DNA of 64,000 bases from Acidimicrobiia bacterium (GCA_029863625.1 JAOTUY010000005.1:1495-65494); one strand, 5' to 3'; positions 2,037 through 15,236 are shown, counted from the first letter of the stretch. Program-made: numbers and translations. The notes: a model not told the origin generated them from the sequence alone.

Positions 2037-4151
2037 TCAGGCTTCCATGACACCTTCCCGGGGCAGCAAAGCAGGAATGATGACCAGCGCCGTCAAAGCA
2101 GCAGTCGTCATCGACACCCACATGATCATCGAGATGTGCGGATGGATACGGAACGGCGACAGCCAGAGCGCGGTGAGCGCGACGGCGATCCCCAGGGCGT
2201 TGGCGATGATCGGTCGGCCGGCCCGGTCGACGGCTCGCAGGACATACCCGTTCCCCTCTCCACGAGCGAAATCGATGGCCGCCACGAAGTGAATGGCGTA
2301 GTCGATGCCGACCCCGATAACGATTGAAGAGATGACGGCCGTCACCAGATTGAGCTGAATGCCTGAAGCCGCGATGAACCCCAACAACATGGCACTGGTG
2401 AGCAACAGCGGCACCAGGCTCACGACGGTTTGGCGCCACTTGCGATAGGCCAAAGCCAGCATCAGGGTCACAAGACCGTAGGCGACGGCCAGGGAGATGA
2501 ACTGGGCTCGCAGGACCAACCGGGCCACTTCATCCCAGATGACGGGCATACCGGTCAGGATCCGGATCTCCTTCTTATCGTCGGCGTAATCGAGCCATCC
2601 CTGCAGATCTACGGTCTCGAAGGCACCCGGCAACAGCATGAACCGGAGTCCGTCCTCTGATGCCATCTGACCGAGCGGCAAGGGTGTTTCCCCGCTAAGT
2701 GCCCCCAGAAGCTGATCATCCGGGACCACCCCTTGTAGATCGGCCAGGCTGAAAATGGTCCGGATACCCGGGAGCTGTTCGAACTCCCTCGAGAGTTCCG
2801 CGACGGGGGCGAGACCGGCTAAGCCGTCAGCCCGATCGTAGGCGTACTCACCGATCAGAGGGGTTGCTCCGCCGAAGAGTTCCGCGGTCTTCTCAAATCC
2901 GAGGCGGACCGGGTCGTCTTTCTTGAAATAGATGAGCTGATCGCCGTCGACCTGCAGTTGCGGGATGAAGACGCCGGAAAAGGCAATCAGGACTCCGGCC
3001 AGAACCGCCGCTACCCACCGCCGCTTGGCCAGCTCTTTGACGGCAGACGTGAGACGGGGGCCGAGCAGCGCCGTGCGGTGCTTCGGTTCGACGTGAATCC
3101 GGCTGAGCAAAGCGGGTAGCGAGAAGAACGAGATGATGCCGGCGAAGACGATTCCGGCCGCTGTGAAGGATCCCAGCTGGGCGATCGGTGCGACGCCGGC
3201 AAATATCAGCGACAGAAACCCGGCGGCGGTGCTGATGGTGGTGAGGATCATCGGAACCCCGACCTGGCGGAGTGTCGACGTGACCCGATCGACTTCATCG
3301 GAGGTGCGGTCGACCTGTTCCTGGTAATGGGTGACGAAATGGAGACCGTCGGCGGAGCCCATCACGATCACGAAGATCGGCACCAGGATGGTGACAATGT
3401 CGACTTCTCGTCCCAGGGCGAAGATGAACCCGAACGTCCACACCGAGCCGAGTAGGGCGGGAAACACCGCGAATATGGTGAGTTTGCGGTCGCCTACGTT
3501 GGCGTAGAAAACGGCCAGTAATAAGAGGACGATGACCGGCGGGATCACAATGAGGAACCAGCTCATCTTGTCGAGCATCGAGGCGAAAATGACTGGATTG
3601 CCCGAGAGGGTCAGCTCCAACCCGTCGGGGGCAGTCACATCGTTCACCGCCTGCGCCACTGCCAGCGAATCGCCGAGCGGAACGACCAGCATCAGCGTGC
3701 TTCGGCCGTCATCACTGACCAGTAGATCGGCCAGGGGATTCTGTCCGAGGAGATCGGTGATTACCTGCTCGGGAACAAGGGCGATCTGGTCCGCCGTCAA
3801 TGGCGCACCGGTGAGCGGGTTGACCTCGGGAATGATCGAACCAACCTGGCCGACACCCTCGATACCGGCCAACGTGTCTCGAAGTTCGCCCACTGCCACC
3901 AGGAGATCCTTCTCGAGCAGGCTGCGACCCTCCGGTGCCGAGACCAGAACGTTGATCGGGTCACCCGTCTCGTACTTCTCCTGCAGGGCGACCCAGGCCT
4001 CACCCGTTTCGTTCCCCTCAGTGATGAACTTGGACACGTCGGCGTTGAACGACATCCGGAACAGCATGGCCAACGAGACGAGGGTGATGATCCCGGTGAT
4101 CGCCAGCACTCGCTTGGAGTGCTCAACAAGGAATCTGGCGATGCGGTCCAT
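2037..4151 (-). CDS. MMPL family (RND superfamily) membrane transporter
   Basis: 704 aa. An N-terminal TM helix (VLAITGIITLVSLAMLF) is followed by a large periplasmic domain and two blocks of about six TM helices (e.g. VIVMGSADGLHFVTHY, GIGVGIDYAIHFV), the classic MMPL/RND layout. Confidence 0.85.
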   Translation of the reverse strand: MDRIARFLVEHSKRVLAITGIITLVSLAMLFRMSFNADVSKFITEGNETGEAWVALQEKYETGDPINVLVSAPEGRSLLEKDLLVAVGELRDTLAGIEGVGQVGSIIPEVNPLTGAPLTADQIALVPEQVITDLLGQNPLADLLVSDDGRSTLMLVVPLGDSLAVAQAVNDVTAPDGLELTLSGNPVIFASMLDKMSWFLIVIPPVIVLLLLAVFYANVGDRKLTIFAVFPALLGSVWTFGFIFALGREVDIVTILVPIFVIVMGSADGLHFVTHYQEQVDRTSDEVDRVTSTLRQVGVPMILTTISTAAGFLSLIFAGVAPIAQLGSFTAAGIVFAGIISFFSLPALLSRIHVEPKHRTALLGPRLTSAVKELAKRRWVAAVLAGVLIAFSGVFIPQLQVDGDQLIYFKKDDPVRLGFEKTAELFGGATPLIGEYAYDRADGLAGLAPVAELSREFEQLPGIRTIFSLADLQGVVPDDQLLGALSGETPLPLGQMASEDGLRFMLLPGAFETVDLQGWLDYADDKKEIRILTGMPVIWDEVARLVLRAQFISLAVAYGLVTLMLALAYRKWRQTVVSLVPLLLTSAMLLGFIAASGIQLNLVTAVISSIVIGVGIDYAIHFVAAIDFARGEGNGYVLRAVDRAGRPIIANALGIAVALTALWLSPFRIHPHISMIMWVSMTTAALTALVIIPALLPREGVMEA

Positions 4152-4386
4152 GGCTTCCTTTCGATGGCCACACTAGATCAACCACTTTGACCATCCCCTC
4201 CAGATGAGCCAGCCAAATCCTGGGACATATGCACGGGCCGGATGGAACAGGACTCGTTATGCAAGAAATCCGCCCTTCGACTTAGAAGGAACCGGTGGCA
4301 TGCACCATCCGAACCGTTATTGTCGCGCTCCCCGGTGCAGGGTGGAGGACTCTCCTTCACTCAATCCGGATTGGAAGAGGTAGGGA

Positions 4387-5670
4387 ATGTCCAGAAGCGG
4401 CTTGCGTCATGAGCGAGTCCTCGACCTGATCGAGACGTCGATGGGACATGGTGTCGAGGCCGGCGTCATCCGCCTCCGCGTCGACGACCAAGCTTCGGCG
4501 GGCGACACCATCACCTTGGGCGGCCGACCCCTGGTCAATTTCGGTTCCTGCGCCTATCTGGGCCTCAATGTCGATCCACGACTGAAGCAGGGAGCTATCG
4601 ATGCGATTCGACGTTTTGGGCCGGTCTTCTCGTCTTCGACCGCCTACACCTCAATAGATCTCTACACATTGCTCGAGGACCGGCTCGCCCAAATGTTTGG
4701 GACGGGGCACATTGTTCTCCCGGCCACTACCACGCTCGGCCACCTTGCGGCCCTCCCTGTTCTCGTTTCGCCGGACGATGTTGTTCTGATCGACACCCAG
4801 TCTCATGCTTCACTACGCCTCGCCACAGATGTCCTGCGGGGAAGGGGAGTGTCTGTCACCGATCTTCCTCACAACGACATGTCTGCGCTGGAGTCAGCCA
4901 TCCAAAAGGCCGAATCCAACCGTGTCTGCCGTATCTGGTATATGGCCGACGGGATCTACTCAATGCATGGGGACGTCGCCCCGGTACACACGATCGCCGA
5001 CCTGCTGGATCGCCACCCGGCTCTGCATGTTTATCTGGATGATGCCCATGGTTTCGGATGGCGCGGGAAACACGGGCGGGGCTATGTGCTCGACAAGACC
5101 CCACTGCATGAGCGCATGGTGATAGTGGTTTCGCTGGCGAAGTCGTTCGGTACCGGGGGCGCCGCGCTTCTGTTCGCAGATCCCGCGACCGCCCGACGGG
5201 TCTGGCTCACCGGCGGCACGCTCACCTTCTCCGGGCCCATCCATCCGGCCGAACTCGGAGCTGCCGTCGCCGCGGCCGAAATCCACCTGTCCGACGAGCA
5301 GGCGGAGCGCCAAACCAAGCTGATCCGCCAAATCGACTTCGTCAGAGATCTGTTGGTCGAGCATCAGCTTCCGGTCGTGTCCCTCGACCCGACCCCAATC
5401 TGGTTCATTCGGGTGGGTCGCCACGACCAAGCGATCAACTTGGCGAAGCGGCTCATGCAGGACGGTTTCTACACCAATACGTCGGCATTTCCGGCCGTGC
5501 CGCGCGGGAAGGGCGGGATTCGCTTCACGCAAACGCTATATCAGACGGATGATCAGATACGCGCGCTCATTAATTCTATGGCCCGACACGTGCCAGAAGT
5601 TGTCGACGAACCGGGAGTAATCGTGGATCTGACCGAAGAAACAGCGCAGCCCGCGGCCAAGAGCGCCTGA
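4387..5670 (+). CDS. PLP-dependent alpha-oxoamine synthase family acyltransferase (8-amino-7-oxononanoate synthase / serine palmitoyltransferase-like)
   Basis: 427 aa with aminotransferase class I/II fold features: GSCAYLGL, a DDAHGFGW-type PLP aspartate region, and SLAKSFGTGGA with the Schiff-base lysine. It is divergent from the MMPL gene. Confidence 0.8.
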   Translation: MSRSGLRHERVLDLIETSMGHGVEAGVIRLRVDDQASAGDTITLGGRPLVNFGSCAYLGLNVDPRLKQGAIDAIRRFGPVFSSSTAYTSIDLYTLLEDRLAQMFGTGHIVLPATTTLGHLAALPVLVSPDDVVLIDTQSHASLRLATDVLRGRGVSVTDLPHNDMSALESAIQKAESNRVCRIWYMADGIYSMHGDVAPVHTIADLLDRHPALHVYLDDAHGFGWRGKHGRGYVLDKTPLHERMVIVVSLAKSFGTGGAALLFADPATARRVWLTGGTLTFSGPIHPAELGAAVAAAEIHLSDEQAERQTKLIRQIDFVRDLLVEHQLPVVSLDPTPIWFIRVGRHDQAINLAKRLMQDGFYTNTSAFPAVPRGKGGIRFTQTLYQTDDQIRALINSMARHVPEVVDEPGVIVDLTEETAQPAAKSA

Positions 5671-5734
5671 AACACCGTCGAGCGCCCGGCAAGACCAACC
5701 CCTTCAGTTCCTGGTCCTGACCTGCCGATATCTG

Positions 5735-7429
5735 TTGCGAATGCAATCGACGGCCCCCCGTTATCGAACCGTTCTCAGGGGCACCGTCCCAACGGGATTC
5801 CGATGGGGCGTCGCTCTTGTTTTGGTGGCGCTCACCCTGGCATGCGCAGCGGTCATAACCATCCCTGCGCAAAAGGACGCGATCGGCCCACCTGGTATGT
5901 TGATCGGAGTGGGGGCCGTAGGCATTCTGCTGGTGCGGTCCTCCCGCCACATGGACGGTCGCGACCGCCGGGCCTGGCGGTTGATCGGAATGGGTTTCCT
6001 GGTAGTTGGGGTTGGCATTCTCACCATTGCGATCCTGGACGTGGCATTCGGCCCGATACCGGCATTTGGACCTCCCGATATCATCGTTATCGCCGGGTAC
6101 GCCCTTGTTCTCGCCGGATTCGGCTCACTGCCCCATCTCAGCACCAGCAAACCACAGCGGGTCCGTATCTACCTCGACAGCGCGATCGGCGCCATCTCAC
6201 TTGCCGTCGTGATGTGGGTGCTGTTTCTCGACGAGCTCATCGCTGCTTTCGCGCAGGCGAATGCGTGGGAAAGGTGGGCAGGATCCATCTACCCGATTCT
6301 CGACGTTGCTGCCTTGATGGTCGTGGTCATCGTGACGGTGCGCCGCAGCAGCTACCGGTTCGACCTTCGGCTCATGTTGTTCGGGGTCGGCATCGTGGTT
6401 CAGTCATTGGCGGATCTGACCCTTTTGAAATCGGGTTTCGGTCAGACCTTCGGCGAGGCCGAACCCAACTACGTCATGTTTCTCCTTGCGGCCCTCGCAT
6501 ACGTGGCCGCTGCCAGCAACGCCAACCGACAGCCAAAACCCCGAGCTTATGCGGATCGCAGGGCTTCCCTGATATCGATGGTGGCGCCCTACTCCGCGGC
6601 GGGGATCTTGGTCATTGTCCTGATAATCGAGATGCAAGCGTCGCAGCTGACGACTAATGCCAGGATCGTTCTCTACGCCACCCTATCCGTCGGAGTTCTG
6701 GTCATCATCAGACAGGGAGTGGCGATTGGCGAAAACCGTCAGCTGGTCGAAAGGCAGCGTGCCGAATTAGTGTCGTCGATCTCCCACGAGTTGCGGACGC
6801 CCCTCACCGCCATTGTCGGGTTCCTCGATGTCATGACCGACGAGGAGGCAGGGATAGATGAAGCGGAGACTCGTGAACTCACCGAAGTCATCCATGAACA
6901 AGCCCGGCACATGTCCCAGATCGTGTCAGATCTAATCCTTCTCGCTCGAGGATCACCCGACGAGTTGACGCTCAAGGAATCCCTGGTCTCGATCGCCGAT
7001 CTGGTCAAGGGCGCCGTGAGATCAGTCGAGCAGAAGACCACATCTCTGACCATCGAAGTTGAAACCCACCTTCAGGGCAGCCTCGATGCCGGTCGAGTTC
7101 AACAGGTCATCGTCAACCTCCTGACCAACGCTGTTCGCTACGGAGGAGACAGAAGCCTGATCGTGGTAAAACGGGAAGGAACCGATCTGGCCATAGAGGT
7201 CCACGACAACGGCCCCGGCGTGCCCAAGAAGTTCGAGTTGGCGATCTGGGAACGCTTCGAGCGGGGGCCGAATCGTTTCAACGCCAGCACTCCCGGATCT
7301 GGTATCGGCCTGGCCGTGGTGGATGCCATCACAAGGGCACACCACGGCAGCACCGCCTATCGGCAATCGGAACGCCTGGGTGGCGCCTGCTTCCGGGTGG
7401 TACTGCCCAACCGAGTCAAAGCGGCCTAA
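5735..7429 (+). CDS. membrane sensor histidine kinase
   Basis: The N-terminal roughly 330 aa carry many TM helices. They are followed by an HisKA H-box (SHELRTPLTAIVGF) and HATPase_c N/G boxes (NLLTNAVRYGG, GSGIGLAVV). Confidence 0.85.
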   Translation: MRMQSTAPRYRTVLRGTVPTGFRWGVALVLVALTLACAAVITIPAQKDAIGPPGMLIGVGAVGILLVRSSRHMDGRDRRAWRLIGMGFLVVGVGILTIAILDVAFGPIPAFGPPDIIVIAGYALVLAGFGSLPHLSTSKPQRVRIYLDSAIGAISLAVVMWVLFLDELIAAFAQANAWERWAGSIYPILDVAALMVVVIVTVRRSSYRFDLRLMLFGVGIVVQSLADLTLLKSGFGQTFGEAEPNYVMFLLAALAYVAAASNANRQPKPRAYADRRASLISMVAPYSAAGILVIVLIIEMQASQLTTNARIVLYATLSVGVLVIIRQGVAIGENRQLVERQRAELVSSISHELRTPLTAIVGFLDVMTDEEAGIDEAETRELTEVIHEQARHMSQIVSDLILLARGSPDELTLKESLVSIADLVKGAVRSVEQKTTSLTIEVETHLQGSLDAGRVQQVIVNLLTNAVRYGGDRSLIVVKREGTDLAIEVHDNGPGVPKKFELAIWERFERGPNRFNASTPGSGIGLAVVDAITRAHHGSTAYRQSERLGGACFRVVLPNRVKAA

Positions 7430-7592
7430 GCAGTTCCTCGTTTCTTGTTTCTCGTTCCCGGTTCGTGGTGTTCTCTCGGCCACCAGGGGGCAAGCGGCCT
7501 GGAAGGGCTGACTTTCTTACGTCTTCCCTCGGCGTCAGCCGGTGGAGCTGGTCGGTTCGAAGAGAGTCGAGCCTGAGGGGCAAAAGACCCGC

Positions 7593-7976
7593 CTACGCCA
7601 CCCCGACTAGATCGGTCACCGCTCTGCGAAAACTGTCGACGTCGAAAGGCTTGGTTAGGTAACCGTTCGCCCCGGACAATCGAGCCCTCTGTTGCGTCTC
7701 GGCGTCGTCGCGAGCCGTGACGATCAGCACCGGTACCATAGCGGTCCGGGGTTCGGCTCTCAGCCGGCCCAGAATCGCCCAGCCGTCCACCCCGGGAAGG
7801 GCGAGATCCAACACCACGAGATCGAAATCCTGGGTGGCGATCGCCTTGAGGGCCGCGGACCCGGTGGTGCAGATGACCGGCTCGAAGCCGGACCCATCCA
7901 GGGTGCGCTCCTCAACCCTCGACGTCGCTTCGGTGTCCTCTACGACCAGGACTTTGCGTTTCACGGTTTTGATCAT
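7593..7976 (-). CDS. single-domain response regulator (CheY-like receiver)
   Basis: 127 aa: KVLVVEDTE...DLVVLDLALPGVDGW...VLIVTA...TKPF. It has the receiver Asp pocket and a conserved Lys, and no output domain. Confidence 0.85.
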   Translation of the reverse strand: MIKTVKRKVLVVEDTEATSRVEERTLDGSGFEPVICTTGSAALKAIATQDFDLVVLDLALPGVDGWAILGRLRAEPRTAMVPVLIVTARDDAETQQRARLSGANGYLTKPFDVDSFRRAVTDLVGVA

Positions 7977-8026
7977 ATGAACCTCGGCGGTTTCACACCA
8001 GGAAGAAGGCGAACCTCCCCCTCTTT

Positions 8027-11000
8027 ATGTCGACCACCCCGCTGCAGATCTTGAATTGTTTCGACCATTTGTCGGGAACTGCTCGCAATTCGCCCGGCCG
8101 TAACACCACCGAATTCAATAGACTGCGATGGTCGGAAATCGACCTACCGGGGGGTGTCGTGGCCGTAGGGGTGGAAGAGAATGTCGACGCGAGCACTGAC
8201 CTCTATCAGTACTACTTGCCGCGCCTGGTTCAGCAGTGGGACACCGACGCTCCTTCGTCTACCCATCGTCAGATCGATGGGACCATGGTCTTTGTCGACA
8301 TTTCAGGTTTCACGGCGATGTCGGAACGCCTGGCCAGGTTCGGGAAGGTCGGGGCTGAAGAGGTCACCGAAGTCCTGGGGGAATGCTTCAAGGGCTTGCT
8401 AGCGGTTGCGTACCCGCTGGGCGGCCGGCTCATCAAGTTCGGGGGCGATGCCCTCCTATTGCTCTTCGACGGCCCCCTGCACGAACGCCGCGCCGTGAAC
8501 GCAGCGGTGGGAATGCAGCATGCCATACGCACACTGGGCAAGGTCAAGACTTCGGCCGGGAACATGACGTTGCGCATGTCGATCGGTGCTCACTCCGGAG
8601 CGTTCCACTTCTTTCTCGTCGGTGACTCGCATCGAGAGTTGATCCTGACCGGCCCCGCCGCCACCGAAACGGTCAAAATGGAGGGGGCCGCCGAGGCAAC
8701 CGAGATCGTCATATCGAAGGCCACGGCATCCGTTCTTCCCAAGGCGGCCGTCGGCCGGCCGAAGGAACCTGGTTTCCTCGTCCGGGCGGCCGTTCCAGAC
8801 GTTGATGAGGGCACCGTCGACGTCCGCCCCCCGCCCGGCAATCTCGAGCAATACATTCCGGTGGCCGTGCGAGAATCGATCCTGGCAGGAGCCAACGAAC
8901 CCGAACACCGCCAGGTCACCGTTGCGTTTCTGCACTTCATGGGGGTAGATGACCTTCTTTCGGAGCAGGGCCCTGCAGCAGTCAGCCGGGCGCTGTCGGA
9001 ACTGATCGGTCAGGTTCAGAAGGCCATCGATCCGCGCGGTGTGGCCTTCCTCGCCACAGACGTCTACGACGACGGGGGGAAGATCATCCTCGCCGCCGGT
9101 GCCCCGACCGCCACCGGGAACGACTCGGAACGCATGCTGCTGGCATTGCGGGAGATGGTCGGTCAAGACCACGAATTGCCAATCAGGATCGGCGTCAACC
9201 GCGGCCACGTTTTCTCCGGTGACGTAGGCCCCGCCTACCGGCGGACGTACACCATCATGGGCGACGACGTGAACCTGGCCGCCCGTCTCATGTCGGCCGC
9301 CTCGCCGGGAGAGATCTACGCGACACCCGTCGTAGTCGATGGCTCCCGAACCCTGTTTGCCACCCGGGCGCTGGAGCCATTCTCGGTCAAGGGCAAAGCC
9401 GAACCGGTCCAGGCGTTCGAAGTTGGAGAAGAGACCGGGACCCGTTCGACCAGGACCAGGGAAGAACTCCCATTCACGGGCCGCAACGAAGAGCTCACCA
9501 GGCTGACCGACGCTTTGGAGGATGCCCGGCTCGGTTCGGGCGGTGTCTTCGCCATTGTTGGCGACCGGGGCATCGGTAAGACCCGGTTGCTCCAGGAGGC
9601 AGTAGCTCTGGAATCGGACGTACCGGCCGTCACGGTCCGAGCCGAGCCCTACGGCACCGCCTCTCCGTACCGGCCGTTCCGGGACCCCATTCGAGACCTT
9701 CTGGGCGTTGAAGGCGGCGAGCAACAGAAAATGGTCCGTCAACTGGCCAAAGCGGTAGGTCGCCTCGACAAAGAACTTCTTCCCTTCCTGCCGCTGATCG
9801 GTGATGTGACCCATGTGGACGTCGACTCAACCCCCGAGGTCCAAGACATCGACCCTCAGTTCCGTCGGGATCGGCTGGCCGGCGTCGTGATCCGGATTCT
9901 GGAACTCGCCAAACCGGGCCCGCTGGCCGTGATCCTGGAAGAAGGCCAGTGGATGGACGAGGCCTCCACCGAGCTTGCCCAACGGCTGAGCCGGGCGACC
10001 GCCGATCATTCCTGGCTGGTCATGACGACCAGGATCGGTAGCGAGGGCGGCTTCGAACCCGAAGACACCCCGATCATCACCCTTGGTCCCCTCGAGTCGC
10101 AGGACGCATTGTCCATCGTCGTGGCTGCGACCGACGAGAGCCCGCTCCGCCCTCACGACATCGATGCGATCGTGCAGCGAGCCGGCGGCAACCCGCTCTT
10201 CCTCGAAGAGATCCTCACGGTGGTGAGACAGACCGAGTCCGTAGCGGACCTCCCCGATTCACTTGACGCGTTGGTGAGCGCCCAGATCGACGCCCTCGCC
10301 CCGCTGCCAAAACAATTGCTCCGCTACGCCAGCGTGCTCGGTCGCAGCTTCCGTCTGACGGTACTGAACGAGGTGCTGCGCGACGACCCGCTGGAGCTCG
10401 ATTCGAGTGCCCAGGACTCCCTCGTCGGGTTCCTCGAGTCCGAGGGCGGCGACCGTATGCAATTTCGGCACGGGCTCATCCGCGACGTGGCCTACGAGGG
10501 TCTTTCGTACCGCCGTCGCCGTGAACTGCACGCAAAGGCTGCCCATGCGACCGAACGACTGGCCGGCGACGACCCCGACTCGGTCGCCGACCTCCTTGCT
10601 CTTCACTACTCGCTGGCCCAGGAATACCAGCCAACCTGGCACTACGCCCGCATCGCCGGCGACGATGCTCGTGAGGCCTACGCCAACGTTGATGCAGCCA
10701 CCCAATATGAGCGAGCCCTCGAGGCAGCCGGGCGTTTGCGGACAGTTAGCGCTCGGGAGAAGGCGGGGGTCTGGGAAGCCCTTGGCGACGTGCGCGAACG
10801 AGTCGGTCTTTACGATGGCGCAGTCGACGCCTATCGGCGAGCAGTCCGACTCCGTGCCGATGACCCTATCGCTAGAGCTAACCTGCTCCTCAAGCGAGCC
10901 CGGGCCCGGATGCGATCCAGTGCCTACGCCGTCGCGCTCGGCGACACGACCCGTGGTCTGCGCTCCTTGGAGAACCTCGACGGCCACGAAGCAGCCAAGG

Positions 11001-11989
11001 CCCGAGCCGGGATGATTTCGTTCAAGGCCGCCATCCGAATGACACAGGACCGACCGCGAGAAGCTCTCGCCAACGCCCAAGAAGCAGCAGACCTGGCCAG
11101 TCTGACCGGGGAGGACGAAGCGCTGGCCCGCGCCTACGGAATTCTTGACTGGGCCCACCTGGCACTCGGAGAACCCCAGAAGGCCGTGCACGGAACAGAA
11201 TCCTTAGAGATCTCGCTGCGGATCGGCGATCTGGCTCAGGCTGCGTTCATTATGAACAACCTGGGCGGCATGGCCTATTTCGACGGTCGCTGGGACGAGG
11301 CGGTGACGTGGTATGCAAAAAGCCGGGAGGCCTTCCGGCGGGCCGGTAACGATGTGGGAGCGGCCTTCGCGGGCGCCAACACCGGCGAAGTGCTGGTGAG
11401 CCAGTACAGGTTCGACGAAGCTGAACCTGTACTGAGAGAGGCAATCCGCGTCTTGCGCGCCTCCGGTTCGGCGAAAGAAGCCACGTTCGCCGAGACCCAG
11501 CTGGCAAGGTTGCTCACGGAGCGAGGCGAGCACGATGAGGCCCACAACATGCTCAGGCGCATCCACGCTGAGGCAGAGGCGCTCGGCCAGACGATTATCA
11601 CCCTGGAGGCTGCGCTTTATCTCGCCCGCCTGCGGGTCCTCCAGGGCGATCCCGGCGGAGCTCTCGGTGTCCTCGAAAGCGCCGAGGAGGCGGCCGGAGC
11701 CGACGCTGTCCTCCTTGCGTCGGCGCTTGCTCGGACGCGTGCCTCTGCCCTGATCGCAATCGGGAGAATCGCTGAGGCAAGAGGAGTCGTTGAGGGTGGA
11801 TTGGCCGAAGCTCGCCGGCAGGGCCTGGACTACGAGGAAGCCTTGCTACTCCGTCTGGCAACCGATGTCGCCCGTTCGGCCGGCCAGAATGCCGAGCCAA
11901 ATCGCACGAACGAAGCCGAGGCGCTCTTCGAGCGCCTCGGCATTCGCTATCCGTTGAGTGATGATTCAGAGGCTCCGTCGCCTACCTGA
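8027..11989 (+). CDS. multidomain signalling protein with two class III adenylate/guanylate cyclase homology domains, a STAND/AAA ATPase and a TPR-like region
   Basis: The first cyclase domain reads GTMVFVDISGFTAMSE...FGGDALLLLF. The second reads VTVAFLHFMG...IRIGVNRGHVFSGDVG...YTIMGDDVNLAARL. A Walker A follows (FAIVGDRGIGKTRLL) after the sequence FTGRNEELTRL, typical of mycobacterial cyclase/LuxR-family ATPases. The long C-terminus is alpha-helical and repeat-rich, and no LuxR HTH is visible at the end. Confidence 0.85.
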   Translation: MSTTPLQILNCFDHLSGTARNSPGRNTTEFNRLRWSEIDLPGGVVAVGVEENVDASTDLYQYYLPRLVQQWDTDAPSSTHRQIDGTMVFVDISGFTAMSERLARFGKVGAEEVTEVLGECFKGLLAVAYPLGGRLIKFGGDALLLLFDGPLHERRAVNAAVGMQHAIRTLGKVKTSAGNMTLRMSIGAHSGAFHFFLVGDSHRELILTGPAATETVKMEGAAEATEIVISKATASVLPKAAVGRPKEPGFLVRAAVPDVDEGTVDVRPPPGNLEQYIPVAVRESILAGANEPEHRQVTVAFLHFMGVDDLLSEQGPAAVSRALSELIGQVQKAIDPRGVAFLATDVYDDGGKIILAAGAPTATGNDSERMLLALREMVGQDHELPIRIGVNRGHVFSGDVGPAYRRTYTIMGDDVNLAARLMSAASPGEIYATPVVVDGSRTLFATRALEPFSVKGKAEPVQAFEVGEETGTRSTRTREELPFTGRNEELTRLTDALEDARLGSGGVFAIVGDRGIGKTRLLQEAVALESDVPAVTVRAEPYGTASPYRPFRDPIRDLLGVEGGEQQKMVRQLAKAVGRLDKELLPFLPLIGDVTHVDVDSTPEVQDIDPQFRRDRLAGVVIRILELAKPGPLAVILEEGQWMDEASTELAQRLSRATADHSWLVMTTRIGSEGGFEPEDTPIITLGPLESQDALSIVVAATDESPLRPHDIDAIVQRAGGNPLFLEEILTVVRQTESVADLPDSLDALVSAQIDALAPLPKQLLRYASVLGRSFRLTVLNEVLRDDPLELDSSAQDSLVGFLESEGGDRMQFRHGLIRDVAYEGLSYRRRRELHAKAAHATERLAGDDPDSVADLLALHYSLAQEYQPTWHYARIAGDDAREAYANVDAATQYERALEAAGRLRTVSAREKAGVWEALGDVRERVGLYDGAVDAYRRAVRLRADDPIARANLLLKRARARMRSSAYAVALGDTTRGLRSLENLDGHEAAKARAGMISFKAAIRMTQDRPREALANAQEAADLASLTGEDEALARAYGILDWAHLALGEPQKAVHGTESLEISLRIGDLAQAAFIMNNLGGMAYFDGRWDEAVTWYAKSREAFRRAGNDVGAAFAGANTGEVLVSQYRFDEAEPVLREAIRVLRASGSAKEATFAETQLARLLTERGEHDEAHNMLRRIHAEAEALGQTIITLEAALYLARLRVLQGDPGGALGVLESAEEAAGADAVLLASALARTRASALIAIGRIAEARGVVEGGLAEARRQGLDYEEALLLRLATDVARSAGQNAEPNRTNEAEALFERLGIRYPLSDDSEAPSPT

Positions 11990-13466
11990 TGCCGAACACC
12001 GGGTCGTCGTTCCCGAAGGAACCGTAGACGTCGATCACCGAGCCGGCGCCCAGGCTGGTTGTGTTGATAGCAGCCAGACACCAGGTGGCCTGAACCAGGT
12101 CGGTGTCAATGACCCCAACCAGGCTCGGGAACAGGTCATCGCCAACACCCGGATCCGGACCTGCCAGCTCGGGGAACAAGCCCTCTTCTATCGCGGCAGC
12201 AGGCCGCAGATTGCAGGCCTGCATGTCCACCAGCGGAGCCGGTCCGTCCAGATCACGATCGTATTGGAGGATCGGCTGCGGGTCACTCGGGCTTCGACTG
12301 TCGAAGACAATGTCACCCCGGTAGTTGGCGGTGATATCGGGACTGAACGGATCAAACGAAACGAACAACGTTGTCGCGTCCATGGTGTAGGGCTTTGGTG
12401 GTCCCGAACATCCAGCGGCAACATCATCGTTACTCGTGAAGATCCTCTTGATGAACGAGGTGAAGCCCGCCTCATTTGTGGCTTCGGCAGTATCACCGCA
12501 GTCCAGTTCACCGTCGTAAACGATCACATCCCTGACCACTCGTATCGCATCATTTCCGGAAGTGTCGGATGCCTCGTAAGTGATTGTGTAGTTACCAGCT
12601 GTAGTCACCAAGCCACCGTCCACGGGGACCGTGGAAGTCCCATAGACGATGTCGTCAGGATCGAAGTTATCTCTGAAGTCGGCACCTGGATCGATGAATT
12701 CATCGCCGACAATGAAGATCAGGGGATTGCCTCCAATCAGAGAAAGCACCGGGGCTTCGCTGTCGGTGGCCATTGTGAAGTACGTGTCATACCCTGCCCC
12801 GGGGTCGTCCAGCAACGAAACTGACCCATCGGCTGGAGAAGAGACGCTGATTTCGACGGCATCGAAAAGGTAGCTTTCACCAACAGCCGGCAGCTCGAAC
12901 AGATGCCGGTCGTCGCCCGAGTCGGGCCCACAATCACTGCCTAAGCACGCGAACGTTGCAGGCGTCCCAATCTCAGATCCATCCTTGAAGGCCTGGATCT
13001 CGCCGGTCGCCCCGAACTTCAGTTTGATCCCGAACTGGGCCTGGTCGGCATACCAATGGCCGATGATGAGACCGGCCAACTCAATCCTGAGGATCTCACC
13101 GCGGTCCAACTGCGTGCCGTTGATCCTCGCACAGGGTGTCCCATTGCCCTCACCCTGGGCTAACACGCCCAGAATGTGGTCTTTGAGGCCTGGTCCAGGG
13201 TTATTACGGTTGGCCTCGGCCGAAAGTTCGACAAGTAGGTGGCCGCTCGGATCAGGATCATTGACGCGACAACCCGACCTACTCAGAGCCTGCGTATAGT
13301 CCGGTGACCCCCCAGCCGGACCCAGCGTGAACTTGTCGCCGTCAGTGTCGTTCATCACGAGGTCGAGTCTTTGACCTGGGACTCCTCCCGAAGCTATCGA
13401 GGCCGTCACCAGCAACGCTCCGACCATGCCGACCACGAGCGCAAGAATCGTCAACTTGCGTTTCAT
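11982..13466 (-). CDS. secreted protein with Ig-like (DUF5011-type) domain
   Basis: The signal peptide is MKRKLTILALVVGMVGALLVTASIASG (start taken at this Met, not the upstream Met of the long ORF). The internal segment PVLSLIGGNPLIFIVGDEFIDPGADFRDN...TAGNYTITYEASDTSGNDAIRVVRDVIV matches the DUF5011/Ig-like pattern. It is convergent with the cyclase gene, overlapping it by 8 nt. Confidence 0.7.
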   Translation of the reverse strand: MKRKLTILALVVGMVGALLVTASIASGGVPGQRLDLVMNDTDGDKFTLGPAGGSPDYTQALSRSGCRVNDPDPSGHLLVELSAEANRNNPGPGLKDHILGVLAQGEGNGTPCARINGTQLDRGEILRIELAGLIIGHWYADQAQFGIKLKFGATGEIQAFKDGSEIGTPATFACLGSDCGPDSGDDRHLFELPAVGESYLFDAVEISVSSPADGSVSLLDDPGAGYDTYFTMATDSEAPVLSLIGGNPLIFIVGDEFIDPGADFRDNFDPDDIVYGTSTVPVDGGLVTTAGNYTITYEASDTSGNDAIRVVRDVIVYDGELDCGDTAEATNEAGFTSFIKRIFTSNDDVAAGCSGPPKPYTMDATTLFVSFDPFSPDITANYRGDIVFDSRSPSDPQPILQYDRDLDGPAPLVDMQACNLRPAAAIEEGLFPELAGPDPGVGDDLFPSLVGVIDTDLVQATWCLAAINTTSLGAGSVIDVYGSFGNDDPVFGIR

Positions 13467-13739
13467 ACCAACCGACCTCCCTTTGGCGGCGCAATACAGC
13501 ACCGTTGTATCAGTTCAGGGTCGAGGAGGCACAATAGACGCCCGGACCCACCGTCCGGGTATCCGTAACGTCGTTCCACGCCTCCCACCGCGATGAACCC
13601 AATCCCCTTCGTTACGTACCGAACCCTACGATGTCACAAGTAGTGAGATTCGTAAAGGGATTCTTTCCGACACCAGGTTGTGAACTCTGATCAAAAGGGA
13701 CTCGATCTGCCCCTCTTGATTGGCGCTACCCGCGTCCCG

Positions 13740-14579
13740 CTAATCGACACAGGTCGTCAAACCGACCCGCCCGGGCACAAGCTCGAACTCGAGATCGTGA
13801 CTCTCGGACATCTCCGCCATAGCTCGATCCAGCATCTCATCCGAATGCCCGGGGTCATGGTGAAACGTGACCAGCTGTTTCACACTTGCCAGCGCGGCAA
13901 ACGCCAGCGCGTGATCGAACGTGCTGTGGCCCCACCCGACCCGACTCTTGTACTCATCGTCGGTGTACTGAGCGTCATGGATCAACACATCGACTCCGTG
14001 AGCCAGCTCAAAACCCGAGGTCCAGTCCGGTACATCGGGGAACTCCGCCACCCCCAGGGCCGGCTCGTGATCGGGCAGATAGGCAAGGACACACTCCGGG
14101 GATTCGATCCGATATCCCATCGTAGGTCCGGGGTGGGTGATGAGCTCGGCGCGCACGGTAAGGCTTCCCAGGGCGAACGAGGCCGGCGGACGGATCTCGT
14201 GCAGCGTGACGTCGGGGAGGTCGCGCAGCATGACCGGGAACAACGGCGGGGACAGATACCGGGTCAGCCGTTCGCGCAGACCAAGCGTCGTCGAACCCGG
14301 ACCCCATACGTGGACTTCGATCTCGGGGTCAAACAGCGGGGAGAAAAACCCAAGACCCTGGATGTGGTCCATGTGGAGGTGGGTGAGGAGGATGTCGACT
14401 CGTTTAGTCCCACTCGGCGTCTGCTCGCCGATCGGCCGGATCCCCGAACCGGCGTCGAGCACGACGAATTCACCGGCCGGACCTCGCAACTCAACGGCAG
14501 CCGTGTCGCCGCCGTACTGAACCGTGTCCGGCCCACCGCTGGCCAACGATCCCCGCGTTCCCCACAGGGTGACCTTCAC
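13740..14579 (-). CDS. MBL-fold metallo-hydrolase
   Basis: 279 aa with the HxHxDH motif (LTHLHMDHIQGLGFF), downstream His/Asp ligands (VLIHDAQY, GWGHST) and C-terminal HHDPGHSDE. Its start overlaps the stop of the upstream PAS gene as ATGA. Confidence 0.8.
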   Translation of the reverse strand: MKVTLWGTRGSLASGGPDTVQYGGDTAAVELRGPAGEFVVLDAGSGIRPIGEQTPSGTKRVDILLTHLHMDHIQGLGFFSPLFDPEIEVHVWGPGSTTLGLRERLTRYLSPPLFPVMLRDLPDVTLHEIRPPASFALGSLTVRAELITHPGPTMGYRIESPECVLAYLPDHEPALGVAEFPDVPDWTSGFELAHGVDVLIHDAQYTDDEYKSRVGWGHSTFDHALAFAALASVKQLVTFHHDPGHSDEMLDRAMAEMSESHDLEFELVPGRVGLTTCVD

Positions 14580-15172
14580 GAGTCGTGCGTCTCCCAGAAC
14601 ATGGCCACGGCGCCGAGGTGGCGGCCTCCCTGGCCTTCAACCGGAAAGGCGGTGATCGCCAGAATCCGCCACACCCCGTCGAGGCCCCTCACTCGCACCG
14701 TGTCGTGACTGGGCACCCGCCCGACCAAGGCGACAACGATTGGCAGCTCAGCATTCGGATAGGGCTTCCCATCAAGCCTGGTCGTATGGAAGTGCTCGGC
14801 GAGCTGATCGGCATTAATCTCACCCGCCTCCTCGAAGCGGACCCCGAGCAACGCCTCCGCCGGTTCGTTGTAGTAGAGGAGATTCCCAGAATCGTCGATC
14901 AGCCAGACGGGGAGAGCGAGGTAGGAGGCCCACTGCTTGAGGAGGATGAGCTCGATCGGCTGTTGGGCCATGTGCCTCCCGTTCGGATTCAGTTTTCCAT
15001 CATGACGCAAAACGGGTATGTCTGCACGAAGTTCTTCGGAACCTGTTGCGACCAAAAAGTCGGGGTCAGAGGTTGAGCCGTCCAGCCCGCCCTCCTCCAT
15101 TACTTGAACAGCCTGACGGTAGCCGGCGTCGATCAGCCCGAACGCCGAGAGCAGCCCGACATGGTCGACCAA
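14576..15172 (-). CDS. stand-alone PAS-like sensor domain protein
   Basis: 198 aa. The segment LPVWLIDDSGNLLYYNEPAEALLGVRFEEAGEI...PIVVALVGRVPSHDTVRVRGLDGVWRILAITAFPV has PAS-fold spacing. There are no TM segments or output domain. It is operonic between the two MBL genes. Confidence 0.6.
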   Translation of the reverse strand: MVDHVGLLSAFGLIDAGYRQAVQVMEEGGLDGSTSDPDFLVATGSEELRADIPVLRHDGKLNPNGRHMAQQPIELILLKQWASYLALPVWLIDDSGNLLYYNEPAEALLGVRFEEAGEINADQLAEHFHTTRLDGKPYPNAELPIVVALVGRVPSHDTVRVRGLDGVWRILAITAFPVEGQGGRHLGAVAMFWETHDS

Positions 15173-15236
15173 AGGGTGTTCACCATTCCCCTATGTGCCG
15201 CCGGCAAAATCTGGGAACGACGGGTGAGGGTGTCGT

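Follow-up and report, generated by a model that had tools for sequence, protein, structure and literature searches.

What kind of protein is encoded when two class III cyclase domains stand in front of a STAND NTPase and a helical repeat region? This question is raised by an open reading frame (ORF) within a stretch of 64,000 nucleotides from an Acidimicrobiia bacterium (GCA_029863625.1 JAOTUY010000005.1:1495-65494), which as a whole is referred to as the window and has a G+C content of about 62%. The ORF lies at positions 8027-11989 on the plus strand, begins with an ATG at 8027 and comprises 1320 codons. An earlier note, made from the sequence alone, had described this ORF as a tandem cyclase with a STAND NTPase and helical repeats. 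The ORF is real, and every motif that was quoted for its 1320-aa product is in place: FVDISGFT...FGGDALLLLF covers aa 89-147, VAFLHFMG...GDDVNLAARL aa 299-421, GDRGIGKTRLL aa 512-522 and GVNRGHVFSGDVG aa 389-401. Residue numbers throughout are those of the 1320-aa ORF. The analysis presented here suggests that the protein is likely a cytosolic signalling nucleotidyl cyclase of this bacterium, which resembles the soluble adenylyl cyclase (sAC, ADCY10).

Active site and proposed regulatory region

Two separate Guanylate_cyc domains were detected by Pfam, which agrees with the proposed presence of two complete class III cyclase homology domains (CHDs) in tandem. Among the sequences of the PDB, the best phmmer match was human sAC (E 1.3e-23), with both domains in colinear order. 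Here, CHD1 aligned to residues 38-191 of the C1 domain and CHD2 to residues 287-453 of the C2 domain. The functional roles of the corresponding sAC residues have been tabulated (PMC12867704, Table 1), so that the two domains can be read residue by residue.

CHD1 retains the two metal-binding aspartates, Asp91 (D47 in sAC) and Asp141 (D99), as well as Lys137, which corresponds to K95 of the bicarbonate site. Lost are the canonical transition-state Asn and Arg, at whose positions Thr213 and Lys217 are present, the pyrophosphate-binding K144, replaced by Ser185, and R176 of the bicarbonate site, replaced by Val216. CHD2 in turn retains the class IIIb Thr409 (T405 in sAC), and Asn416 (N412) and Arg420 (R416) for the ribose and transition state, together with a phosphate-binding VKGK motif, for which an sAC equivalent was not mapped. 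Its metal positions are degenerate: His303 occupies the first (N298 in sAC), and the DDGG turn 348-351 places Gly350/351 at the second. Furthermore, Ala343 is found in place of the base-recognizing K334.

Conservation was scored on an alignment of 114 full-length homologues with identities down to 46%. D91, K137, D141, T409, N416 and R420 show not a single substitution wherever the column is occupied (for D91, 113 sequences and one gap), and the same holds true for D345, K352, H394 and R405. The positions complementary to the retained residues are consistently non-canonical throughout this alignment. When the C1 fragment of human sAC was placed on the hidden Markov model of the family, D47, K95, D99, K144 and R176 fell in the expected columns.

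Since CHD1 keeps only the metal-binding Asp pair and CHD2 only Thr, Asn and Arg, one composite active site results. Judged from these residues, each domain is half-degenerate and the two are complementary, which gives exactly one full catalytic site and one degenerate pseudo-site. The earlier suspicion that one of the domains is regulatory or degenerate holds for CHD2; CHD1, however, is degenerate as well, lacking Asn and Arg, and the halves complement each other. The substitutions of CHD2 had been located in the GVNRGHVFSGDVG strand, but the actual sites are His303 and Gly350-351 of the DDGG turn. Two domains devoid of catalytic residues, as had also been considered, were not found, since the metal Asp pair as well as Thr, Asn and Arg are present.

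The fold points in the same direction. An AlphaFold2 model of aa 45-483, for which 59 homologues served as input, reached a predicted local distance difference test score (pLDDT) of 88.8 and a predicted template modeling score (pTM) of 0.89. In this model CHD1 and CHD2 are shown to fold back on each other as a predicted intramolecular C1-C2 pseudo-heterodimer. A Foldseek comparison with the PDB returned human sAC for all of the top 24 matches, with template modeling (TM) scores of 0.77-0.81, 22-23% identity and E-values down to 2.8e-30, and these matches span the whole two-domain unit of about 460 columns. The C1-C2 units of AC9, AC8 and AC5 rank below sAC, and single-domain bacterial cyclases appear only after these. 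Thus, the proposed pseudo-heterodimeric site is borne out by residues, alignment and fold, the specific match being sAC rather than the transmembrane cyclases.

Behind the cyclase unit, Pfam revealed an AAA_16 match at aa 482-659 (E 3e-21) and TPR_12/TPR_MalT matches, i.e., tetratricopeptide repeats (TPRs), up to aa 1288. The Walker A motif is formed by G512-R520 (nt 9560-9586) and Walker B by AVILEE at aa 634-639 (nt 9926-9943), and a GGNPLF motif is located at aa 720-725. Walker A (GxxGxGK[ST]R), Walker B (hhhh[ED][DE]), the subsequent W-M-D and GGNPLF are all conserved in the homologues; therefore, the NTPase looks functional on sequence level. An AlphaFold2 model of aa 470-1320 (pLDDT 89.9, pTM 0.85) displays a five-stranded nucleotide-binding domain (NBD), a helical domain, a winged helix and an unbroken TPR solenoid up to about aa 1304, in this order. 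The remaining tail of roughly 16 residues is disordered (pLDDT below 50), and a terminal DNA-binding domain is absent from the model. The best fold match of this part was 6mfv, an archaeal STAND-TPR protein (E 1e-13), while a sequence search of the PDB with the NOD yielded no sequence-level relatives. The Walker A STAND NTPase followed by helical repeats was therefore recognized correctly and is represented by an intact NTPase and subsequent TPRs.

Equally correct was the observation that the LuxR helix-turn-helix (HTH) of the mycobacterial cyclase-ATPases is missing: Pfam gave no HTH or GerE match in the protein, even at E 0.1, and the solenoid leads directly into the disordered tail. That this absence is unusual did not hold up. 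GerE is found in none of the best 120 homologues, ADCY10 likewise contains a P-loop and putative TPRs, and within the Actinobacteria proteins combining a CHD with LuxR are restricted to Mycobacterium (PMC3466318). Due to this restriction, the missing LuxR domain is the norm.

For such an sAC-like cyclase, a mechanism can be proposed. CHD1 supplies both metal-binding aspartates, D91 and D141, and CHD2 the other residues of the site: Asn416 and Arg420 for the ribose and transition state, Thr409 as in class IIIb, and KGK for phosphate binding. The composite site would then turn over a nucleoside triphosphate, most likely converting ATP to cAMP. The pseudo-site, which the invariant Lys137, Asp345 and Lys352 line together with a basic residue at position 303, is probably a regulatory pocket for a small ligand, as is the bicarbonate site in sAC. 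The STAND NTPase and the TPR solenoid may serve as a nucleotide-dependent switch or sensor, which would release the cyclase from autoinhibition once a ligand or partner is bound by the TPRs. Such a switch is suggested by the analogy to MalT-type STANDs and by the activity of full-length sAC, which falls about 10-fold short of that of the truncated form, probably owing to an autoinhibitory sequence (PMC11006738). Since the catalytic dimer is predicted to be intramolecular, oligomerization would not be needed to build the site, unlike in the STAND cyclases with a single CHD, and the STAND module more likely gates or localizes the activity than builds the dimer.

Nucleotide pocket, product and competing explanations

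Some observations weigh against this reading. The base-recognizing Lys334 of sAC is Ala343 here and the pyrophosphate-binding Lys144 is an invariant Ser, so that substrate binding would not be sAC-like in detail and cAMP as the product is an assumption. Furthermore, the synteny of the neighboring histidine kinase and receiver genes is confined to the two closest relatives.

To place these substitutions within the family, the pocket residues were tabulated for 45 genomic relatives. At the position of Lys334, the proteins from Chloroflexota contain Lys in an 'INKV' motif as in human sAC, Acidimicrobiia-type loci contain Ala or Gly, and a Gaiellaceae/Thermoleophilia subclade contains Glu, in some members along with an exchange of Asn412 to Ala; Asp, His and Ser occur in isolated cases. 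Asn298 is Asn in Chloroflexota, and His, Arg or Lys in the clade of the window protein. Similarly, Lys144 corresponds to Lys or Arg in Chloroflexota and to Ser, His or Ala in this clade, in which Val, Thr or Ala takes the place of Arg176. In the alignment of the 114 full-length homologues, the Lys334 column comprises 101 Ala, 11 Gly and 2 Ser, and the Lys144 column is Ser without exception. A co-varying pocket was observed in five Gaiellaceae/Thermoleophilia loci (L025, L026, L027, L028 and L036), which combine Glu at Lys334 with Ala at Asn412, His at Lys144 and Arg at position 352.

One alternative is that the same scaffold yields another or a promiscuous product, i.e., cGMP, a pyrimidine cyclic nucleotide or a mixture instead of specifically cAMP. 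We consider this unlikely. It would fit the replacement of Lys334 by Ala or Gly in all but two of the homologues, both of which contain Ser, and the loss of this Lys in a clade whose Chloroflexota relatives retain it. Also the Glu of guanylyl cyclase type in the related Gaiellaceae/Thermoleophilia loci, accompanied by Ala at Asn412, and the invariant Ser at Lys144 would be in line with such a change. A precedent is Rv0386 of M. tuberculosis, in which Gln and Asn replace Lys and Asp and which has a guanylyl cyclase side-activity. On the contrary, several mycobacterial cyclases in which the canonical Lys is missing, Rv1900c among them, nevertheless act as adenylyl cyclases. In the window protein, Thr409, a class IIIb residue of adenylyl type, is invariant. 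The invariant Asp345 on the same strand as Ala343 also occurs in the Chloroflexota proteins that retain the Lys, and it could make contact with the adenine N6; it is therefore a candidate for the base-facing residue. What has been confirmed for Rv0386 is an alternative mechanism of substrate binding, by which the cyclase works without the canonical Lys (PMC3466318). Since cyclases lacking this Lys are known to work, cAMP stays the most likely product as far as can be judged from the residues.

A similar question arises for the regulator. The bicarbonate site of mammalian sAC is built by Lys95 and Arg176 (PMC12867704). Although the Lys95 equivalent K137 is kept, the Arg176 equivalent is Val216, and a bicarbonate site of the mammalian type is therefore probably not present. 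This criterion is not absolute, since at the position of Arg176 an Arg is missing in the Chloroflexota proteins, too. It is conceivable, yet improbable, that the clade has re-tooled its nucleotide pocket toward a different messenger than cAMP or toward control by a ligand that is not bicarbonate, by the exchange of Lys334 to Ala/Gly (Glu in the sister subclade), of Lys144 to Ser and by the basic residue of the pseudo-site. If true, the clade would represent a naturally occurring version of the sAC scaffold with altered specificity, and its lineage would matter for the bacterial origin of eukaryotic sAC. The substitutions that distinguish the clade at the positions for base, pyrophosphate and bicarbonate represent a modest lead on the diversity of substrates and regulators.

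Even less probable is a catalytically inactive sensor or scaffold, in which the tandem CHDs bind ATP or another ligand without turnover and signal via the STAND/TPR part, comparable to the class III cyclase-like ATP-binding protein of P. aeruginosa. Two substrate-contacting lysines of sAC are indeed gone, and a cyclase-like ATP-binding protein (PDB 6yii) is among the fold matches of the two-domain unit (rank 32, TMq 0.61). However, the sAC matches are much stronger (TM 0.8 vs. 0.6), and the invariance of both metal Asp residues, Asn416, Arg420, Thr409 and KGK at a divergence down to 46% identity is hard to explain without catalysis.

Finally, a role in phage defense had been left open by the earlier note. 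In an Avs-type (NLR-like) or Pycsar-like system, the TPRs would sense a phage protein, the STAND module would oligomerize and the cyclase would produce an alarm nucleotide. The order of effector, STAND and TPRs is like that of Avs proteins, and PycC models of PADLOC match CHD1 with a best E of 8e-13; however, the best PycC score of 46.3 bits equals that of Pfam Guanylate_cyc on the same domain (46.3 bits). Apart from PycC, the PADLOC scan of the protein returned one generic TPR model and no Avs or NLR model, and for the ten neighboring genes nothing related to defense beyond a generic receiver similarity. Within these ten flanking genes Pfam detected no domain binding cyclic nucleoside monophosphates (cNMPs), and among the ORFs of the window a single-sequence search of low sensitivity revealed no cNMP-binding effector except for a 36-aa remnant-like match to the C-terminus of a patatin protein. 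The neighbors, a kinase, a receiver, an aminotransferase, an MMPL protein, LtrA and FabH, belong to housekeeping and signaling and constitute neither a defense island nor a mobile context, the synteny is stable in close relatives and the gene is monocistronic. With no Avs match, a PycC match no stronger than the generic one, no adjacent effector and such neighbors, a defense role is without support and very improbable.

Gene start and genomic neighborhood

All of the 114 full-length homologues start at the residue aligned with codon 45 (MAVGVEE, compared to VAVGVEE in the window protein). This codon is a GTG at 8159 and is preceded by a G-rich run resembling a Shine-Dalgarno sequence, GGGGGG at 8149-8154, 5-10 nt upstream. 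Because the homologues begin at codon 45 and the G-run precedes the GTG, the true gene most likely starts at 8159 rather than at 8027, which would result in a protein of 1276 aa plus the stop codon. For codons 1-44 (8027-8158), a counterpart is absent in nearly all homologues. With the start at 8159, the divergent intergenic gap to the receiver gene amounts to 182 bp. An identical protein is already public as 'MAG: AAA family ATPase [Acidimicrobiia bacterium]' (P0001, 1320 aa) and probably carries the same over-called N-terminus. Neither an Rfam family at E <= 0.1 nor a sigma-70-like promoter was detected around the gene. An assignment to the TOMM system kinase/cyclase fusion family (TIGR03903) was rejected, as the score of 151 bits lies below the cut-off of 705.75, the match covers only model positions 285-917 and the kinase domain is absent. 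The coordinates of all features are summarized in Table 1.

Table 1. Coordinates of the cyclase gene, its domains and the adjacent genes within the window.
Feature	Residues (aa)	Position (nt)	Strand	Basis and remarks
Tandem cyclase-STAND-TPR coding sequence (most likely)		8159..11989	+	Homologue starts, GTG and G-run
CHD1, C1-like half	86-238	8282..8740	+	Pfam Guanylate_cyc E 4.7e-12; phmmer to sAC C1
CHD2, C2-like half	292-459	8900..9403	+	Pfam Guanylate_cyc E 4e-16; alignment to sAC C2
STAND NTPase module	~487-824	9485..10498	+	AAA_16, conserved motifs, AlphaFold2 model, 6mfv fold match
TPR / MalT-like alpha-solenoid	~828-1304	10508..11938	+	TPR_12, TPR_MalT, AlphaFold2 model
Histidine kinase (HisKA + HATPase_c)		5735..7429	+	Pfam; syntenic in L001 and L002 only
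Single-domain response-regulator receiver, 127 aa, divergent		7593..7976	-	Response_reg E 4e-23; syntenic in L001 only
Secreted Ig-like protein, 506 aa, convergent		11982..13502	-	Bact_surface_Ig-like E 2.3e-9; overlaps the cyclase stop by 8 nt

The cyclase gene is monocistronic, with a divergent neighbor on one side and a convergent one on the other, and the contexts are ordinary chromosomal ones. Further neighbors identified by Pfam are an epimerase, an MMPL protein, an aminotransferase, a metallo-beta-lactamase-fold protein, LtrA and FabH. From the arrangement of the genes, the kinase and the receiver could form a phosphorelay input to the cyclase, and the divergent receiver is a possible partner. 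As conserved partners both were rejected, since the synteny is seen in the two closest loci (L001 and L002) and is absent in about 50 other loci. The most recurrent neighbor is the Ig-like gene, which directly follows the cyclase in five loci (L001, L003, L004, L008 and L018). The N-terminus of its 506-aa product resembles a signal peptide, and a bacterial surface Ig-like domain is weakly matched.

The related contig L001 harbors two tandem cyclase paralogues at 2059-5898 and 6001-9822, whose identities to the window protein are 36% and 73%, respectively. Three genes beyond these paralogues, at 12632-14473 on the minus strand, a gene with cNMP_binding, NTE_Ploop and Patatin domains is located, which is a candidate cyclic-nucleotide receptor. 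In the window, the region 14579-15190 on the minus strand contains a 36-aa match of 64% identity to the C-terminus of this patatin protein, perhaps a remnant or else a related ORF of small size.

Family and comparison with known systems

A word-indexed protein search yielded 5754 proteins at E <= 1e-10. Within the best 120 of these, Guanylate_cyc and AAA_16 are present in all and TPRs in nearly all, and most have a length of about 1260 aa. When 1.84 billion representatives of clusters (50% identity) were searched exhaustively by phmmer with the tandem unit, 1996 clusters matched at E <= 1e-30, the majority of them belonging to Acidimicrobiia and Thermoleophilia. Among the best 150 of these clusters, most are 1200-1300 aa long, and the match extends over the whole unit in nearly all; about one third are shorter, apparently truncated entries. 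In a genome scan, relatives at 45-56% identity were found in Acidimicrobiia, in Thermoleophilia, Gaiellaceae and Solirubrobacteraceae, and in Agromyces luteolus JCM 11431, and relatives at 28-35% identity in Chloroflexota including Chloroflexus sp. The protein is therefore an uncharacterized member of a large sAC-like family of tandem cyclase-STAND-TPR proteins from environmental Actinomycetota and a fairly ordinary signaling enzyme rather than a novel system.

The copy of the cultured A. luteolus JCM 11431 (L012, NZ_WODA01000023.1) is 53% identical in the cyclase unit and has the same Pfam domains and the same Ala/Ser/His pocket, which makes it a convenient entry point for experiments. Copies with 51-56% identity in the cyclase unit are also present in metagenome-assembled genomes labeled as Acidobacteriota, Betaproteobacteria and Casimicrobiaceae (L008, L009, L014 and L046), which represent either mis-binned contigs or horizontal transfer.

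The tandem-cyclase plus STAND/TPR layout of animal sAC is abundant in Actinomycetota and Chloroflexota, far beyond a few Chloroflexus genes, which bears on whether the second cyclase domain of sAC arose in bacteria or in early eukaryotes. Moreover, for the regulatory STAND/TPR part of sAC, which is still unsolved, the bacterial proteins, one of them from the cultured A. luteolus JCM 11431, can serve as compact models of full length.

The closest known system is sAC itself (ADCY10; PDB 4CLF, 4OYA), which like the window protein contains two CHDs per chain in the order C1-C2. In both, C1 carries the metal Asp pair and the Lys95 equivalent, and C2 carries Thr, Asn and Arg and lacks the metal Asp. 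The beta2/beta3 hairpin of C2 in the window protein aligns without gaps to the FDKG-loop region of sAC. In human sAC the P-loop at 516-523 and putative TPR motifs lie within the 1131-residue C-terminal region (PMC3475452). In both proteins the P-loop follows about 45-55 residues after C2 and precedes TPR-type repeats, as seen by Pfam and AlphaFold2 for the window protein and in PMC3475452 for sAC; this C-terminal likeness is one of architecture alone. Differences are the identity of only 22-23%, the exchanges Lys334 to Ala, Lys144 to Ser, Arg176 to Val and Asn298 to His, and the length, as the window protein is about 330 aa shorter and a heme domain was not identified in it.

Among bacterial proteins, L061 from Chloroflexus sp. 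has the same order of tandem CHD, AAA_16 and TPR in Pfam and aligns end to end by BLAST, over aa 19-1101 of the window protein, with 30% identity (E 6e-113). The Chloroflexota proteins differ from the clade of the window protein by the sAC-type Lys334, Asn298 and a basic residue at Lys144. The Chloroflexus enzyme assayed by Kobayashi, Buck and Levin in 2004 is said to be of the tandem sAC-like type. According to the citing statements in PMC11006738 and PMC2613629, a Chloroflexus adenylyl cyclase is stimulated by bicarbonate (Kobayashi et al., 2004).

The mycobacterial proteins Rv0386, Rv1358 and Rv2488c share with the window protein the combination of a class III cyclase with AAA_16/STAND and TPRs, the actinobacterial origin and non-canonical substrate-specifying residues. 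In contrast, the Rv0386 group contains a single CHD, which must homodimerize, and ends in a LuxR HTH, whereas the window protein lacks this HTH and contains two complementary CHDs. The proposed regulatory part resembles the MalT-type STAND NTPases (PDB 6mfv; MalT TPR PF17874), in which NBD, helical domain and winged helix are followed by a TPR solenoid in the same order. Here, the effector of the MalT-type proteins is a DNA-binding domain, while that of the window protein is the N-terminal tandem cyclase.

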